From positions 28,713 through 92,712 of IMG/VR virus record IMGVR_UViG_3300033121_000711: 64,000 bases of DNA; one strand, written 5' to 3'. The notes beneath the pieces were generated by a model. It had not been told where the DNA came from. It saw only the letters and a program-made list of their open reading frames with translations, and did no database searches. Below are positions 1,885 through 64,000 of this stretch, piece after piece. Position 1 is the stretch's first letter. Each line of letters starts with the position of its first letter. This DNA comes from a virus. Its lineage: Duplodnaviria > Caudoviricetes. Both the position numbers and the translations under genes were made by a program.

Positions 1885-2249
1885 AAGTCCACCTGAAATG
1901 AGAAGCCAGCCTGATAGTCTTCCACACCTTCTTGGGAGACTTCGTCAGCCGGAGTTGTTATAATACAGTTGTTTAAAGTCCGACCTTCATAATCTAGTAT
2001 AGTTATTTTTTGACCTAAGCTATTTCTCATAAAGGTTAAAAGATTGTACAAATCGTTTTGAGTTAAATAGCTGAACTTCCAAGTATACGTCACAAACTTA
2101 GGCCAATTGCTATCACGAAAAATTACTAAATCACCACCTCTAGTTTTCCTATTTATTCTACGTATCTCTACAGACTCTTTGTCATTAAAATCTGGATTTC
2201 TCAGTGTTACACTATTTAGTCCGTAAGTCAAAGTAATCATTATGAACAC
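1881..2249 (-). CDS. Putative distal-tail-like structural protein
   Basis: Position after tape measure; resembles the C-terminal domain of 17596..19302. Confidence 0.5.
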   Translation of the reverse strand: MFIMITLTYGLNSVTLRNPDFNDKESVEIRRINRKTRGGDLVIFRDSNWPKFVTYTWKFSYLTQNDLYNLLTFMRNSLGQKITILDYEGRTLNNCIITTPADEVSQEGVEDYQAGFSFQVDL

Positions 2250-2779
2250 TCCGGTGCATTAGGCCCTGTCAATGTTGGAAGTGTTATATAGTATTTGTCA
2301 TAATCTTCTATAATACCGACACCGTAAGAAGATATAACTAAAGTTTGAATTATTTCTATATTTCTTATAACCGTGTAAGTTGCTTCTTGTGTAAATGTTA
2401 TTGTTTGTATTGCAGCTTTACAATTATGTACTGTTACTGATTGTTCAATATCTAAAGTATGAGTAATTTGCTCATACTCAACAACTTTAGCTACTTGACC
2501 TATAATCAAATACTGAACAATATCTTGTTGGCCAGCTGACTTATGCCCGCCTTGATGCAGGTCTAAAAACTGAGTAACTGAAATATTGTTGATAGATTTT
2601 CTTACAGAGACGTTTTGAGATAAATGTAAAAAATTTGCGACGCTTAAAAACTGTCTATAGTTTTTTGCACTATCCGTTAAAACTAAAACTTGATCAACGA
2701 AAAGACTTGTTGGGAAATATTTTGAATTTCCCTGATCAAGAGCTAGAAACTGTACCACCTTCAATTCGTACACTGCCAT
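2240..2779 (-). CDS. Virion protein with QxLxLxQ beta repeats
   Basis: Repeats QFLALDQ, NFLHLSQ, QFLDLHQ, HTLDIEQ, QTITFTQ; tail module context. Confidence 0.55.
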   Translation of the reverse strand: MAVYELKVVQFLALDQGNSKYFPTSLFVDQVLVLTDSAKNYRQFLSVANFLHLSQNVSVRKSINNISVTQFLDLHQGGHKSAGQQDIVQYLIIGQVAKVVEYEQITHTLDIEQSVTVHNCKAAIQTITFTQEATYTVIRNIEIIQTLVISSYGVGIIEDYDKYYITLPTLTGPNAPECS

Positions 2780-3038
2780 CGATATCCTCCAGATCTAATG
2801 TTTGTCCACGAAGATCGTGATGACAGTCATTTAAGAATTCGATTTTACCTTCTTTAACATAATGGTGACAATGAATAATTTCACCACGCCGACTATAACC
2901 TTCAGCTAAAATTGACGGTGAAAATGTTGGCCTATCTAAATCGCCATTCCATTCCCAAATCTTTGAACTGATTTCATGCTCTATGCGACAGCCTGGACAA
3001 TTATAGGAAACAACACTACCTGATACTTTAACTTTCAT
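2736..3038 (-). CDS. DUF6527-like small Cys/His protein
   Basis: CPGC..H, WxWNG..xPTFSPSIL, CHxYVxxGxI motifs; probable start ATG 3038 with GGAG RBS. Confidence 0.6.
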   Translation of the reverse strand: MKVKVSGSVVSYNCPGCRIEHEISSKIWEWNGDLDRPTFSPSILAEGYSRRGEIIHCHHYVKEGKIEFLNDCHHDLRGQTLDLEDIDGSVRIEGGTVSSS

Positions 3039-3054
3039 TTTGACTCCAGAAAGC

Positions 3055-3095
3055 AAAATAGGCGAGCCGAGCGAGTGCCCGGCTCGCCTATTTTT
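3055..3095 (-). terminator. Intrinsic terminator hairpin, possibly bidirectional
   Basis: AAAATAGGCGAGCCG...CGGCTCGCCTATTTT immediately after the stop of 3098..3649. Confidence 0.7.
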
Positions 3096-3097
3096 AT

Positions 3098-3649
3098 TTA
3101 CGCATTCAGCGTGTAAGTAACTTTCAACTGGTCTCCATTGACTACCGGAACGTCGGCAGTAAACAGAGCTGTAGACCAAAGATAGCCAGTCGTTCCACCT
3201 TTAGTATTGTTACTGGTGATAAAGATACCCTTAACCGTGCCACTAGAAGACACGTCAAAAGTAGCAGGAGTACCATTAGTCACAGATTGAGAAGCCGCAG
3301 CGTCAGAGCCCCAAGCCACGCGATTGGATTGGCTATAGCTTGTGAACTCTGTCCAGCCACCGTGACTATTCATCACGTCTGTAGCAGCTAATGCACTGTA
3401 ACTTGTCAAGTTGATAAGACCAATATACCAACTGGAATTAGCAACTTGCGTTTCATCGTTGAACATGACATCGAAAAGAAGGTTCTTGCCTTGATTTACG
3501 ATATCATTAAAAATTGTATAATGGTCGTAGAATTTACCTTCACGAAAATGATCGATATCAAATCGACCTCTAAGATCCAGCTTTTGTCCTTTAGGACGCT
3601 CTTGCATCTTAAGAAACATGGAACCATTTTCAAGTACGATTTTATTCAT
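3098..3649 (-). CDS. Virion structural protein (paralog of 17024..17599)
   Basis: WYIGL...DVMNSHGGWTE..Y..SNR...NNTKGGTTG.L motif shared with 17024..17599. Confidence 0.65.
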   Translation of the reverse strand: MNKIVLENGSMFLKMQERPKGQKLDLRGRFDIDHFREGKFYDHYTIFNDIVNQGKNLLFDVMFNDETQVANSSWYIGLINLTSYSALAATDVMNSHGGWTEFTSYSQSNRVAWGSDAAASQSVTNGTPATFDVSSSGTVKGIFITSNNTKGGTTGYLWSTALFTADVPVVNGDQLKVTYTLNA

Positions 3650-3652
3650 CTT

Positions 3653-6600
3653 TTATCCTAAATTTATTGTACCACGCCGGATACCGCGACGTAGACCTTG
3701 TGCAATGTTTCTCAACGATTGTCCGTCAGTTTGACCGCCAGACACATTAACAGTTATATCGCCAACATTTGTAACGGGGCCACCGTTATTCATATACTTA
3801 GGCATACCGCCAGAATTCATAGCTCTAAGTAAAGGTGCAAACATTTTGGTTGCATCTTCATTCATTACATATTCTTTTTTACTCAACATGGCAGGCACGT
3901 TATCGCTACCTCTCGGCACGAAATTAACAAAACCGCCATATTTCATATACTCTGGAGGCTTACCGCCAAACATACGACCTTCAGCCGGTACGTTTGGTAA
4001 AGCATCTATAGGATTTAGCCCTGGTTGATTATTAAGAGCATTATTTATACGTTCAAGTTCATTAGCATAATTTGCGGCTGCATTAGCTAAAGTTTGAAAA
4101 TTAGATTGTACAACAGGTGTTGAATTAATAGATGCTTCAGCCATAGCCCTTAAAGCACCGGGGACATTTTTTAGGCGTTGATCCAAATTAGCGGCCGTAT
4201 TTAAAGCAGCATCTAATTTGTTTTTAGTTTGCTCTATACTTGTAGCAGCTGTAACTAAATCTTGACCAACACCTGTAGATAGTCCTATCTGATCTTTTAC
4301 AGATCTACCTTTATCTGCACCAAAAGATATTTTATCTGGACTTCCAAGATTACGTAATCTAATATATTCCAATGTTGCAGCGTTAAGAGCTTCAATAGCT
4401 TGACGTACTTTGTTAGCGTTTTCAACAGTACGTCCACCAGAGGCGTTAAATGCATCTCTTGCAGCTTTTAAATCGTCAACTTTTTCTAAGGCTTTATTGC
4501 GAGCTGGTTCAGATTCTTTATCGGTTCTTATACCATCTATCTTAATAGGCTTATCAAGACTGGCTTTAAAGACATCTATTTGACGATTAACACCACTGAG
4601 TAGTCTATCTATTTCAGTAGTTTCTTGCCTAATCTTTTCTTGAGCTTTAGTCGCTAAGTTTTCAATATTTTGAATATCTCGTCCAGCACCTTCTTGAATC
4701 TTTTGAGCAGATTCAACATTTTGTGCTGTTCGTATTTGATTGATAATGCTATCTCTTTGCTTTTGCAAATCGATAAAGACTTGGAATCCTCTTCCAGGAT
4801 CTGAATCTTGGGAAGCTAATTCTAATATCTTTTTACGTCGAGTTTCAAACTCGCGTAAAGCACGTTCAGTACCTTCAGGGCCTTTATACTCATTCTTTAA
4901 TTTACCTTCTTTATTGAAGACATCAATCTTCTCAAGAAGCATAAATTGTTGTTGCAGAAGACGTATACGTTCACGTTCTTTAGCTGCAAGCGACTCTTGC
5001 TGTTTTTGCTTATCGCTCTGTACTTGACGATATTGCTCTTCTAAAGCTAATCGTTCTTGTGTCAGAGAATTTATCTGAGATTCAATATCTTTTGTTCTAA
5101 CTGTGAACTCGTAACGAGCTTGACCGTCAGGGCCAATTGTTGGTGCTACTTGTCCTTGTTTTACCCGGAACTCAAACTGTTTTCTTTCATTCTCAGTTTG
5201 TTTCTGGAATAATTGAGACTGTAACTGTTGAACATCGTTAAATAGTTTTCGACCTTCTTCAGCACCTTCTTTAGTGCCTTTAGCAAACTCTTCTCTAGCT
5301 TGTGCAGCTAGTTGTAGAATTCTTGCTTTTAATAATTCGATCTGTTGATCGTTAGCTATAAATCCTGTAAAATTGTCTTGATTGCCAGGACTTGCAAATT
5401 TTAATTTTTCGTTAAAAATTGCATTAGAGCCACGTCTTGGTAGATCTTCAGATTCTCTCAAACTTTGACGGATCTCAGACTTAGCTCTGTTAGCTTCTTC
5501 ATTGAATCTAGAAACATTACGACGAAGACTTTCAAAATATGTACCAGAACTTGTTTTAAGATTCTCAGTTATAGCTTTCAGATTATCTGTAGCTACAACC
5601 TTAAGTCTATTAGCTTCTTTCAAAACGTTCGTAGAGAAAGTTAAAACAGTTTGGAATCTTTTCTTATACTCTTCTTTAACCTTTTCAGTTGTTTGACTTA
5701 CACCTTTTTCTTCAAGTTCACCAATACCTTTACGAACTTTTTCAGCTTCTATAGATGCTTGTTTAGATTTTGAAATCACATTGTCTAAAGCATCAAGCTG
5801 CTTACTAAAGATTTTATCTCCAACATAATAGCTTCCCCCAAAAGCTATAGCTAAAGCGGCAACTGGTGTAGCAGCAGCTAATGCTGCTTTTGTTACAGCC
5901 CCTAATCCTGTTAACATAGCAGGAAAAGAAGTTGTGCTTAAATAAGTGTAAGCTACACTTAGAGCTGTAGTAGTTGCTGTCAGCGTTCGCTTAGCCAAAG
6001 AAGATGCAGCAGTTAGAGCTATTTCAGTTTGCATTGCCGGGTGTAGAGCTATTAAAACACCTCGATAAGCAATATACCCACCAATAGTTAATTGGATAGT
6101 AGCTAATAAGCCTTTAGCAGCATTGGCTGCACCACCCATACCTTCAACAATACGTACTAATCCTTTTAAGAACGGCTCACCAAAATCTTGCTCAAAATAA
6201 TTGCGAAGTTGAATCATCTGTTGGGCAGCTCTTTGTCCCGGAGATTCTTGAACTTCTTTTTTAGCGTTCTCGTACTCTTTTTGAGCTCCTGTGATCTTTC
6301 TTAAAGAATCTTGGAAGTCATTAAAGGCCCCACCAGTAAGACCGACAGTTCCTCGAATAGCTCGAATCTGTCCGAGCAAGTCACCAATCCTACCAGTACC
6401 TTTAGCTGCTTCTTGATCTAATTTCTGTAATACTCCAGCAAATCCAAAAGTAGCAATAGCTGCCGTACCGCTAGAAACACCCCACTCTTCAAAAAGCTTC
6501 TTCATCTCATCTGTAGGACGGATAAGCTTTAAAAGAATATTTTGAATAAGTGTGCTAGAGTCGTTAAATTTAATACCGCGATTTGTTAATACTGCAATAG

Positions 6601-58032: not shown

Positions 58033-58143
58033 CTTATTCTCGTTTTAGCAGCCCTTCTACACCCGTGGTCGATGTAGAGTCTGGTTAGGCCCTATACAGC
58101 TTAGGCACTAACAGTAGATTAGGTATCGAACACTGCACCTAAA

Positions 58144-58216
58144 TACCCCAGGCTGGAATCGAACCAGCGACCCCCGGCTTATAAGGCCGATGCTCTAACC
58201 ACTGAGCTACTGGGGC
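58144..58216 (-). tRNA. tRNA-Ile (anticodon TAT), CCA not encoded
   Basis: Full cloverleaf GCCCCAG...CTGGGGT-A; anticodon loop CT-TAT-AA. Confidence 0.9.
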
Positions 58217-58306
58217 ACATAAATGACTGCTTATCCCGTCCTAGGTTGCAACACGCAAGGGCAGACCGAGACTTAAAATCCGCCCATAAGCAGTCATTTA
58301 TTTCAA

Positions 58307-59563: not shown

Positions 59564-59578
59564 AAAAGTTCCTTTCAA

Positions 59579-59651
59579 AGCTATCGGTGGGAGTCGAACC
59601 CACAACCTGTTGATTACAAATCAACTGCTCTGCCAATTGAGCTACGATAGC
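59579..59651 (-). tRNA. tRNA-Thr (anticodon TGT), CCA not encoded
   Basis: Full cloverleaf GCTATCG...CGATAGC-T; anticodon loop TT-TGT-AA. Confidence 0.92.
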
Positions 59652-60091
59652 TAGGGTATTACCCGTTATCTAGCACATCATTAATCCAATCAATACCACA
59701 TTTAACTTCATGACCATCATCTTCAACAACAAAAATTCCATCAGATGGTTCAGGTGCTAATTTCTCTTTTGCTTCCGTATATTCTTCTGCCTCGATTTGT
59801 TTTTTGAATACGCCATCTCTAGAATACAAACGATAACAGTAAGCCATAATAAATTATCTTTAATTCAAGTTAAGAGAATCGAACCCACAATTTGAAATTG
59901 TGGGTTCGATAATATACTGGTGCCGTGGTTTTTCAAGCTGACCAGTAACAGCTTTCATGTCCACGCTTGTTATCGCGTTGCAATAGTTACTCGAAAAGCT
60001 TAGTGGCCTTAACTATTGCAATGACCACTCACGGCTAGGTCTGCGTGTGGTCGGCCACTAATTTGTACTTGAGGATTTCTCCTCAAGTGTA

Positions 60092-61642: not shown

Positions 61643-62002
61643 TTACCAAGAATAGTTTTGAAATTTATTCAAATCAACTGGCAAATGATCTTCTGGGATT
61701 GTGAAACCATTTGCCTTGAGTATACGATTCTTTTCCGAGATAACTTCGTTAGTTATCTTGATCTCGCTTTTATGAAGAGCTTCTCTAATACTTTCTGTAG
61801 ATAGACGTAAAAGAAGCTCGCAAAAACTTGAATCGGCTTTAGCAATCAGACCTAAAGAATTTTTAAGTCTAATCATAGTGCCAAAAGTGTTATCCAATAC
61901 GTCAGCTTCAAGAAGCTGACGTATACAATCTTCTGCAACTTTTTGCGTAGAGAGCATCATTAGCCAGTCGTTAGACTTACGCTTAAAGTTTCGGAACGCC
62001 AT
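61643..62002 (-). CDS. Hypothetical protein
   Basis: Coupled ORF. Confidence 0.55.
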   Translation of the reverse strand: MAFRNFKRKSNDWLMMLSTQKVAEDCIRQLLEADVLDNTFGTMIRLKNSLGLIAKADSSFCELLLRLSTESIREALHKSEIKITNEVISEKNRILKANGFTIPEDHLPVDLNKFQNYSW

Positions 62003-62384
62003 TCAGAAATCTTACAGTCATACGCTGACCGATAATAGCGTCCCGGTAATCACAATCAATTGTTAACAACATCCCTGAATCTAGGACAAGTTCAATCAAC
62101 GTACCTGCGACACCAGTTACTGTCGCCCTAGATAAGTCTCCCCAATCACCAATCTCTTTCCTCACTTTCTCATCAGTTGTAAATGATCCGGTACTAGCCA
62201 TACCAAGATTACGTAACTTCAGAAAAAGACCTTTAAGCCATTTGATTTCTTCCTCTCTCGCATCGATTTGGATGCGTTGCATTGGCGTTAGGTCTCGTTT
62301 CAAGGGACGTTTTTGACCGCAAAACATACATTTTGTTTTGCTTAATCCTTGACAAATTCTACAAGCCACTGAATTAAGTTTCAT
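61983..62384 (-). CDS. Zinc-finger-containing hypothetical protein
   Basis: CRIC...CMFC N-terminus. Confidence 0.55.
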   Translation of the reverse strand: MKLNSVACRICQGLSKTKCMFCGQKRPLKRDLTPMQRIQIDAREEEIKWLKGLFLKLRNLGMASTGSFTTDEKVRKEIGDWGDLSRATVTGVAGTLIELVLDSGMLLTIDCDYRDAIIGQRMTVRFLNGVPKL

Positions 62385-64000
62385 TAGCTTCTCTCAGAAT
62401 TCTAAAGCCACAGGTATCACCTCCAGCTAGTAAATCCCAATCTCTTACAGCTATTTGGGTGCCTATATCACACCAACAAGCACCTCGAATAGCGGGCAGA
62501 AAATCAACATCATCTAAAACTCCTTCAGGATCCGAAAGCCCAGAAAGTTGTATCGAAGATCCGGATTCAGTCGATCTCGATATATGAAACCCCGACTGAA
62601 CCAACTGCTGCCCCGAAGAACGAAAGTTGGCATCTAAAATTCCTTCAAGATCCGGAATCCTAGATAACTCCTCTGCATTCTCTGCTTTAACATACGTCGT
62701 CGTATGCTTAATTTCGTTCCCATACTGCACCAACTGTTGCCCCGAATCACGAAAGTCAGCGTCTGTTAAGACTTCACCTCCTTCAGAATTCGGAAGCCCA
62801 GATATTTGCTCTTTTGTTGTGTTGTGGCTTTCCAATACATTTCCATCTTGCAGAATGTACTCCGATCGAACCAACTGCTGCTCCGGAAAGACAACGTCCG
62901 TTAAGACTCCACCTCCTTCAAAATCCGGAAGCCCACATCCGCTAACCAAGGCTTCCTCATGCACATCAGTATCGAGTGACGTATTTGATGTTTCGATGGC
63001 AGACTGTTCCAACCGCAACTCAGAATCACGAAATCTAACGTCCGTTAAGACTTCACCTCCTTCAGGATTCGGAAGGCGAAATATTCGTTCCCGTTCCAAG
63101 TTCTGGTGTAACAGGCAATCATCATCTTGCAATGTTCGCCCACATCGAACCAACTGCTGCTCCGGAAAGATGGCGCCTAAAGCGTCACCTCCTTCAGGAT
63201 TCGTAAGCCGAGAAATTGGTAGTCGTGTACTATCAGGATTCTCGATCGTTCGATTATCCGACAAGCCACTCCTACTGTGGAGTAACTGCTGCCCCGAATC
63301 ACGAAAGTCGGCCTCTAAAATTCCTTCAGGATTCGGAATCCTTGCTCGCGAACTGGAAGCGGAGACGTTCGCCTGCAAGGTAGAACAAGCTTCGTGAACC
63401 AACTGTGACCTCGAATCACGAAAGTAGTCTAAAACTCCTTCAGAATTCGGAAACCCACATCTTTCCAAAATACCGACGTTCTCATTACTATCATCGGTTG
63501 CACACTGGCCCAACTGCCCCCTCGAAGGACTCTGAAAGTAGTCTAAATCTCCTTCAGAATCCGAAAACCCACATCTTTCCAAAATACCGACGTTCTCTTC
63601 ATTGCTGTTACTGGATTTAGAGTCATCCAACCGCTGCCCCGAACGGCGAAAGTTGGCGTCTAAAACTCCTTCAGAATTCGGAAACTCGCATCGTTGTACA
63701 TCTGAGACATTTCTATCCGATGGAACATTGGGCAATTCCGTCCTAGACTGTTCCAGCCGCCGCCCCGAATGGTCCAGAAAGTAGTCTAAATCTCCTTCAG
63801 GATTCTGAATCCCGTGTCTATCCTCGGTAAAGTTGCTTCCATTATCGCCCGTCTCGCTGCTGGGCAATTCCGTCCTAGACTGTTCAAACCGGCTCCCCGG
63901 CGGCGAGCGAAAAAAATCTAAATCTCCTTCAGGATTCTGAATCCTACGCTGGTCATCCTCGCTACTGGCGATACTCGTTTCGCTGTTAACATTCTCCCCA
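62374..64000 (-). repeat. Array of at least 13 cassettes (114-144 bp) encoding FGE-sulfatase/CLec C-terminal 'RGxSW...GFRILKE*' segments
   Basis: Conserved TTC-CGA-ATY-CTG-AAG-GAG block and TTTCGTGATTCGGGGCAGCAGTTGG-like block flank unique cores. Confidence 0.85.
62374..64000 (-). CDS. Stop-free ORF overlapping the cassette array (5' end beyond window); translation uncertain
   Basis: Frame open from the window edge to TAA 62374; ends in frame with the last cassette (AIRGACW...GFRILRE). Confidence 0.4.
   Translation of the reverse strand, partial: GENVNSETSIASSEDDQRRIQNPEGDLDFFRSPPGSRFEQSRTELPSSETGDNGSNFTEDRHGIQNPEGDLDYFLDHSGRRLEQSRTELPNVPSDRNVSDVQRCEFPNSEGVLDANFRRSGQRLDDSKSSNSNEENVGILERCGFSDSEGDLDYFQSPSRGQLGQCATDDSNENVGILERCGFPNSEGVLDYFRDSRSQLVHEACSTLQANVSASSSRARIPNPEGILEADFRDSGQQLLHSRSGLSDNRTIENPDSTRLPISRLTNPEGGDALGAIFPEQQLVRCGRTLQDDDCLLHQNLERERIFRLPNPEGGEVLTDVRFRDSELRLEQSAIETSNTSLDTDVHEEALVSGCGLPDFEGGGVLTDVVFPEQQLVRSEYILQDGNVLESHNTTKEQISGLPNSEGGEVLTDADFRDSGQQLVQYGNEIKHTTTYVKAENAEELSRIPDLEGILDANFRSSGQQLVQSGFHISRSTESGSSIQLSGLSDPEGVLDDVDFLPAIRGACWCDIGTQIAVRDWDLLAGGDTCGFRILREANET

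Follow-up and report, generated by a model that had tools for sequence, protein, structure and literature searches.

We analysed a gene lying at the end of a 64,000-nucleotide (nt) stretch of phage DNA (Duplodnaviria; Caudoviricetes), hereafter the window, which is the 3' end of a single 92,712-bp IMG/VR contig (IMGVR_UViG_3300033121_000711, positions 28,713 to 92,712; L001 in the coordinates below). This gene, encoded on the minus strand, appears to be a dual-coded cassette array, in which a truncated scaffold of the lectin fold would be completed by any one of a series of interchangeable end-pieces. We consider it highly probable that this dual-frame cassette array is real and under selection. 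As to how it is used, serial +1 frameshifting at UUU_C is the best explanation that we can offer, with somewhat better than even chances in our estimation; the slipping, its efficiency and the folding of products around a looped-out tether are what we infer from the sequence.

The phage genome was taken as 99%-complete. The contig ends with 77 nt that recur unchanged at its positions 68-144, so the genome closes on itself inside the array. When the tail is joined to position 145, a single open reading frame (ORF) of 828 codons is obtained, with its ATG at L001:1004. The window holds the 3' 541 codons of this carrier frame (frame 0; 62374..64000, minus strand), and the 5' part, which encodes the FGE-sulfatase scaffold, is found at L001:145-1004 (minus strand). 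The frame is open over these 541 codons up to the window edge and over all 828 across the contig join, in line with the stretch of about 540 stop-free codons reported in the preliminary description of this DNA.

The first 276 codons of frame 0 encode an N-terminal region of ~75 amino acids (aa) and an FGE-sulfatase domain, which has the C-type-lectin fold (PF03781, E 6.6e-36, 124.7 bits for a gathering cut-off of 23.3). The match covers profile positions 7-197 of 255 only, and the scaffold is without its last ~55 residues in frame 0. Relatives retrieved from viral and metagenome contigs are 33-52% identical to it, and all of the 160 that were fetched have an ordinary in-frame C-terminus, i.e. 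RVLRGGSW, ~25 residues, GFRVV and a stop a few residues further on; GenBank phages (Microcystis phages and others) also carry ordinary FGE genes. In the array gene, this RGGSW...GFR closing segment is not found in frame 0 after the scaffold; it occurs 12 times in frame +1 and once, in the last piece (C1), in frame 0. What follows the scaffold in frame 0 is a hydrophilic repeat (PNPEG..LD..FRDSGQQL...) without match to any Pfam family. This frame-0 tether of 510 aa, which is the off-frame reading of 12 cassettes, is acidic and hydrophilic (grand average of hydropathy -0.82, isoelectric point 4.4).

Every one of the 12 units carries, in frame +1, its own intact version of the end-piece, composed of (T)TF with one to three residues, RGxSW, 20-27 variable residues, GFRILKE, 1-4 residues and a stop; the corresponding +1 ORFs of 32-42 aa, all ending with GFRILKE, are present in the ORF listing. 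Read from the scaffold along the minus strand, the array starts with cassette 0 (C13), which lies right behind the scaffold and whose 3' part occupies 63918..64000, its start and UUU_C being in the contig head (L001:176-179). It continues with unit 1 (C12; 63786..63917, 132 nt), whose motif is degenerate (RGAGL for RGGSW), unit 2 (C11; 63660..63785, 126 nt), unit 3 (C10; 63543..63659, 117 nt), the 3' half of which is nearly identical to that of unit 4, and unit 4 itself (C9; 63429..63542, 114 nt; RVLRGGSW...GFRILKEF, profile E 3e-6). Then come unit 5 (C8; 63315..63428, 114 nt), unit 6 (C7; 63177..63314, 138 nt), unit 7 (C6; 63045..63176, 132 nt), unit 8 (C5; 62901..63044, 144 nt), unit 9 (C4; 62766..62900, 135 nt), unit 10 (C3; 62634..62765, 132 nt) and unit 11 (C2; 62514..62633, 120 nt), the latter with the canonical +1 cassette VLRGSSW...LGFRILKEF-stop (profile E 2.9e-6). 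The thirteenth piece, C1 (62374..62511; IRGACW...GFRILRE, stop at 62374-62376), reads in frame 0, because the segment after its TTT_C is 8 nt long and not 3 nt. The 11 complete units had been described as 114-144 nt long and divisible by 3, and the measured lengths agree; the chance of 11 lengths all being divisible by 3 is (1/3)^11. Unit 11 alone has a well-spaced ATG of its own (AAGGAA, 6 nt, then ATG right after the previous stop), so that translation of its cassette as a separate 39-aa peptide is also conceivable.

The relatedness of the cassettes to ordinary FGE C-termini was assessed with a profile built from 35 ordinary homologue C-termini and run against 2528 six-frame pieces of the genome. 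All 12 cassettes were listed, nine of them at E < 0.1, and one other genome piece scored equally well. In length and at the conserved R, G, W, G, F and R positions, the cassettes match the homologues with which they were aligned. When TTTC is read as one step at junction 0, a 313-aa protein results, the tail of which coincides with the R, G, G and R columns that are invariant in the family. Pfam searches with single cassettes did not extend the domain match. In the literature on diversity-generating retroelements (DGR), the variable region of Mtd and TvpA, which faces the ligand, is assigned to the last ~45 residues of the fold, and the DGR-type members of the FGE fold are binders (PMC5758913). 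The end segment being the ligand-facing one in those proteins, the cassettes would vary the binding surface.

Comparison of the contig head with the window (L001:1-144 with 63368-63443 and 63924-64000) further revealed a second form of the array. Contig positions 1-76 are identical to window 63368-63443, and the contig head fuses cassette 0 straight to unit 5, i.e. an in-frame 489-nt deletion of units 1-4. The core common to both parts at this fusion is only 9 nt long (CTGAAGGAG), so reads with the cassette 0-unit 5 junction must exist, and the join probably represents an array of another length that was present in the population sampled. In a short-read viral metagenomic contig, unit order and number could be partly mis-assembled; all units being multiples of 3, the frame logic is independent of unit order.

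Selection was examined on both frames. The preliminary description had proposed a synonymous shuffle, and when the +1 peptides were kept and their synonymous codons resampled according to genome codon usage, 37.0±4.8 frame-0 stops were expected (minimum 23 in 1500 draws), for none observed. Conversely, when the frame-0 peptide and the conserved stops were kept, resampling produced 12.1±2.9 extra +1 stops (minimum 3 in 1500 draws), again for none observed. The third frame holds 53 stops; a -1 shift, which would lead into this frame (-1 = +2), was rejected on that ground. The 7-codon GFRILKE block differs among the 12 units at 27 sites, 24 of which are synonymous and 3 non-synonymous in frame +1. 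This synonymous excess indicates that the +1 peptides are selected as proteins. For the frame-0 24-nt window over the same block, a single one of the 39 scored variants is synonymous and 38 are non-synonymous, as had been claimed for the carrier frame, on which selection acts mainly to keep it open.

Some nucleotides are fixed beyond the coding need of frame +1. CTG, AAG and GAG are invariably used for L, K and E of the block, although their genome usage is 8%, 39% and 32%, respectively, and other codons are preferred. Moreover, the T before TTC and the C of TTC are invariant at every junction, whereas neighbouring synonymous sites vary. Such fixation points to a constraint coming from frame 0 or from the RNA. 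Likewise, at the 12 junctions preceded by a cassette, the frame-0 UUA that carries each +1 stop does not vary; neither a +1 stop nor this UUA is present at junction 0.

A frame-0 TTT followed by C was found at all 13 junctions, the scaffold-cassette 0 junction included, which extends to the whole array what had been noted near each cassette start. Twelve of these sites are in the window (minus strand, span 62499..63912), at 63909-12, 63777-80, 63648-51, 63534-37, 63420-23, 63303-06, 63165-68, 63030-33, 62886-89, 62751-54, 62622-25 and 62499-502. The codons preceding TTT_C vary (ACC, TTT, TAC, AAC, TAC, TAC, GAC, ATC, AGA, GTC, GAC, AAC and GAT); each of the twelve sites is placed 5-11 nt past the previous +1 stop and 1-4 codons before RGxSW. 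The window for productive entry, i.e. from the previous +1 stop to RGxSW, is 3-6 codons long, and UUU_C is the sole +1 re-pairing codon there in every unit. The TTT_C of junction 0 is the first in-frame one of the gene, none of the six TTT codons of the scaffold being followed by C. The seven-T run of junction 1 (window 63909-63918, minus strand GATTTTTTTCGC) may also let cassette 1, with its degenerate RGAGL, be reached by transcriptional slippage or by slipped-strand phase variation.

Eight of the 13 slip sites are UUU_CGN, and five are exactly UUU_CGU. UUU_Ynn has a particular tendency towards +1 shifting in bacteria, and UCC_UUU_CGU serves as the +1 site of influenza PA-X (PMC5009743). Like the known cases of UUU_Ynn slippage, i.e. 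E. coli test genes, Yersinia YopN-TyeA and influenza A PA-X (PMC5009743), the array has the same tetranucleotide with UUU to UUC re-pairing, a conserved overlapping +1 ORF that would give a new C-terminus, and no obvious stimulator. These cases involve one site and two products, whereas the array would have 12 productive sites in series, each leading into its own version of one structural segment, its products being predictions.

In the mechanism that we propose, the peptidyl-tRNA-Phe on UUU would re-pair with UUC at a junction, and a fraction of the ribosomes would slip +1. A slipped ribosome would read the cassette of that junction and terminate at its stop; the unslipped ones would move to the next junction, and those that never slipped would end on C1. 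From a single mRNA, 13 proteins would result, measuring 313, 357, 399, 438, 476, 514, 560, 604, 652, 697, 741, 781 and 828 aa, every one of which would have the common scaffold and its own binding end, and the distal ones would fold with the tether looped out. All unit lengths being multiples of 3, a cassette cannot be brought into frame by any deletion between units. The frame offset between scaffold and cassette 0 lies in contiguous contig-head sequence; an indel error at junction 0 was considered and rejected, as it leaves the open frame 0 and the in-frame C1 unexplained.

A second array was recovered by a pattern scan for two adjacent end-pieces followed by screening. This locus, L269 (IMGVR_UViG_3300020197_000087, 1900-3700), is unrelated to the window array, from which it differs by its GC content (59%) and by a scaffold that is only 39% identical. 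Both arrays nevertheless have a truncated FGE scaffold in the carrier frame, stop-closed cassettes in a single other frame, unit lengths divisible by 3 (144, 144, 150 and 153 nt in L269), an in-phase slip site at all junctions and an in-frame terminal cassette, with which the carrier ends. In L269 the cassettes number five instead of 12, they are read in the -1 frame, and the slip site is G_GGA_AAG, which we take to be the -1 heptamer of the phage lambda G/GT type. The heptamer is found in phase after the cassette-frame stop at all five junctions, junction 0 included, with AGGA or GGGA ~9 nt upstream, and five of its six copies in 14.6 kb sit at junctions. That both loci have this layout, each with a slip signal matching its direction at the equivalent position, is hard to reconcile with a model based on recombination only, and it raised our confidence in the translational reading. 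L269 continues, in the third frame, with one more cassette, which has a Met of its own.

The carrier product of L269 contains the Pfam FGE domain in two stretches. In an AlphaFold2 model computed with a homologue alignment, the scaffold (residues 1-190) had a predicted local distance difference test (pLDDT) score of 92-98 and the terminal piece one of 77-96, and the 240-aa tether stayed below 50. The confident parts, taken from the model range 3-476, superpose on PvdO and TvpA (Z of 32.5 and 29.5 over 228 and 214 residues, respectively). In this model, scaffold and terminal piece pack together into a TvpA/FGE fold, with the tether disordered. The model leans on family likeness; it shows that the L269 layout is structurally self-consistent, and only that. 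A single-sequence AlphaFold2 run on the L269 carrier was meaningless (pLDDT 37).

End-pieces are also stacked in other ways elsewhere. At L019:5580-7862 (IMGVR_UViG_3300037484_000800), an FGE gene ends before RGGSW...GFR and is followed by six overlapping ORFs of 65-77 aa, each with its own ATG or GTG and one RGGSW...GFRL piece; the unit spacing is 178-181 nt, so that successive ORFs are shifted by one frame. In L194:400-700 and L248:7400-8000, several RGGSW...GFR end-pieces are joined in the same frame without stops. Finally, L266 (minus strand, 2189-2630) contains three near-identical 170-nt end-piece units in three frames, behind a stop-ended FGE scaffold, which could be DGR repeats or another type of array.

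Several observations weigh against serial frameshifting in the window array, the first of which is that no frameshift stimulator was found at the junctions. A Shine-Dalgarno (SD)-like tract, GAAGGAG or GAAGGAGG, is present upstream of each TTT, at 11, 14, 17, 19 or 22 nt. An SD at ~10-14 nt favours -1 and not +1 shifting. The A-site codons (CGU, CGA, CGC, CCG, CUG and CAG) are sense codons that are not consistently rare in the phage, CGU being its commonest Arg codon (in phage usage, from which the host tRNA pool may differ). The 3' windows of the junctions have no consistent RNA structure (mean z -0.42). In the rest of the genome, C follows 15.7% of TTT codons for a base rate of 17.9%, and as TTT_C is not avoided genome-wide, basal, unaided slipping must be rare. 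Five further in-frame TTT_C exist, four inside units and one at the last, already in-frame junction, where a shift would be abortive. A need for Phe in both frames could also account for the unvarying T_TTC, the Pfam match is not extended over cassette 0 in the TTTC-shifted product, and in distal-cassette products the fold would have to accommodate as many as 470 aa of tether.

In addition, a close relative of the array was not found by our searches, which leaves no direct comparative test. The carrier protein had no relative among 5.8 billion proteins, and it retrieved only a low-complexity repeat protein (P0121) from 1.84 billion representatives. A search for related arrays with a DNA pattern derived from the conserved block gave one chance match only (L081), the search for longer proteins gave multi-domain FGE proteins and no carriers, and a pattern scan for AT-rich arrays gave none. 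Rfam searches were negative, and neither a frameshift-suppressor tRNA nor a Phe or Arg tRNA was found in the genome, which encodes only tRNA-Leu(UAA), tRNA-Ile(UAU) and tRNA-Thr(UGU).

The speculation put forward in the preliminary description, that carrier-frame ribosomes could shift +1 into any cassette, is partly upheld: the truncated scaffold, the selected +1 end-pieces, UUU_C as sole re-pairing codon and L269 speak for it, and the missing stimulator and the lack of UUU_C avoidance against it. Shifting, if any, is probably of low efficiency or driven by another stimulator. Nascent-peptide effects raise +1 shifting in pheL to 15-60% (PMC3082878), and a stimulator of this kind at the array junctions is conceivable, though this is speculation.

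Like prfB (RF2), the array would shift in the +1 direction on a pyrimidine-rich P-site re-pairing codon, downstream of an SD-like purine tract. In prfB, however, the SD lies 3 nt from CUU and UGA occupies the A site, whereas in the array the spacing is variable (11-22 nt) and the A-site codon is a sense codon. Among the prfB-type features, P-site re-pairing was found in the array, and an SD at 3 nt and a stop or slow A-site codon were not. The SD-like tract noted earlier is confirmed at each junction, and the prfB-type role that had been suggested for it finds no support. Besides, shifting in prfB serves autoregulation, whereas in the array it would serve product diversity.

Other explanations of the array were weighed against serial frameshifting. 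We judge it unlikely that the +1 cassettes are a silent DNA library, i.e. donors for gene conversion or recombination into the expressed C1, frame 0 being open only because the donors intervene. The promoterless tandem cassettes with conserved flanks, the position of C1 in frame 0 and the mosaic structure of the units (half-units common to 3+4, 1+2 and 7+9) fit such a library, and the 489-nt in-frame deletion variant means that recombination within the array occurs. Borrelia vlsE/vls and Neisseria pilE/pilS similarly have promoterless variant cassettes in tandem beside an expressed copy, and the vls array is largely open-reading. The present array differs from both: its cassettes are contained, in another frame, within the ORF that is expressed, and matching flanks are missing from the expressed end-piece. 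Indeed, C1 would be a poor recipient, since its exact identity with any unit does not exceed 9 nt (for a median of 26.5 nt for the best exact matches of the other units) and its 5' flank differs in length by 5 nt. Furthermore, junction 0 is itself out of frame, which a simple deletion cannot fix, the units being multiples of 3; no reverse transcriptase (PF00078) and no tyrosine or serine recombinase was found in the genome; and the in-phase slip site at every junction, here and in L269, would be unexplained. The alternative already raised in the preliminary description, that the open frame only prevents polarity across a silent array, does not explain why scaffold and terminal cassette are both in the carrier frame.

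It is also rather improbable that only the 828-aa frame-0 protein is made, with the repeat as an acidic tether or stalk and the +1 frames as a by-product of duplication or an unexpressed reservoir. Only frame 0 has both a start codon and an uninterrupted ORF, it resembles the genome slightly more in codon usage than frame +1 does (-0.04 vs -0.15), its tether is hydrophilic and acidic, and the downstream gene is probably coupled to its stop. The selection data run counter to this possibility, as frame +1 is under purifying selection (24:3) and free of internal stops where 12 were expected, a +1 stop is kept in every unit, and the frame-0 residues in the GFRILKE block are not conserved (1:38).

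Still less probable, in our opinion, is that the cassettes are free 35-45-aa peptides, produced from internal starts and completing the scaffold in trans, as the mini-ORFs of L019 appear designed to do. Besides the truncated FGE gene and the six mini-ORFs with own starts of L019, the AAGGAA-6 nt-ATG of unit 11 and the SD-like tract ahead of every cassette are in keeping with it, but a workable start exists in only one of the 12 cassettes; the others open with ACT, ACG, AGG, GCG, CGG or CAG, and the nearest GTG is at least 15 nt from the SD-like tract, or there is none. Lastly, an assembly artefact, i.e. strain variants of one C-terminal region stitched into a false tandem array, is very hard to believe even for a short-read metagenomic contig that ends inside the array with two alternative paths, since the junctions join two different variable regions over an imperfect repeat of only ~50 nt, so that single reads span them, alleles would lead into the downstream gene and not into another cassette start, the dual-frame properties hold inside each unit, and similar arrays exist in other contigs (L269 and L019).

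The presumed purpose of the array, i.e. many binding specificities on one fold, is also that of the DGR-diversified FGE/C-type-lectin proteins, such as Treponema TvpA and Bordetella phage Mtd (PMC5758913), which have the same scaffold and the same varied segment of ~45 residues from RGGSW to GFR. Unlike these, the array is accompanied by neither a reverse transcriptase nor a template repeat, an adenine-specific pattern is missing, and its cassettes differ in length and throughout their sequence. Its diversity is hard-wired (13 versions) and would be sampled in translation, whereas DGR rely on mutagenic retrohoming. In the literature, papers on DGR and on frameshifting were found, and no description of such arrays.

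The array gene overlaps both of its neighbours by 11 nt, at L001:994-1004 (upstream stop and array start) and at window 62374-62384 (array stop and downstream start). The downstream gene (61983..62384, minus strand, ATG at 62384) encodes a Cys-rich protein of 133 aa, and given its overlap with the end of the carrier ORF, its translation is probably coupled to frame-0 read-through. The three phage tRNA genes, Leu(UAA), Ile(UAU) and Thr(UGU), are located at G000:C1:3035-3110, window 58143-58217 and window 59578-59652.

We give about even odds to the proposition that phages possess a translational diversity generator, in which the end-pieces of a lectin-fold binder are sampled by serial frameshifting, and which arose with both -1 (G_GGA_AAG) and +1 (UUU_C) signals, the array of the window being its +1 form. 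If the products are made, this would be a third route, beside DGR retrohoming and cassette recombination, by which a virus varies a binding protein. Such a route would work in translation, need no mutation and be reproducible at each infection, each infected cell making the full set of binders from a single mRNA. Many programmed frameshift sites in a row would here act, for the first time, as a selector, and nature would provide an example of a fold that interchangeable last segments complete across a long tether. Because gene callers annotate the carrier ORF only, such binders would be invisible in phage annotation, and the predicted ladder of products makes the idea directly testable. Finally, the layout suggests a way of designing single genes that encode protein libraries.

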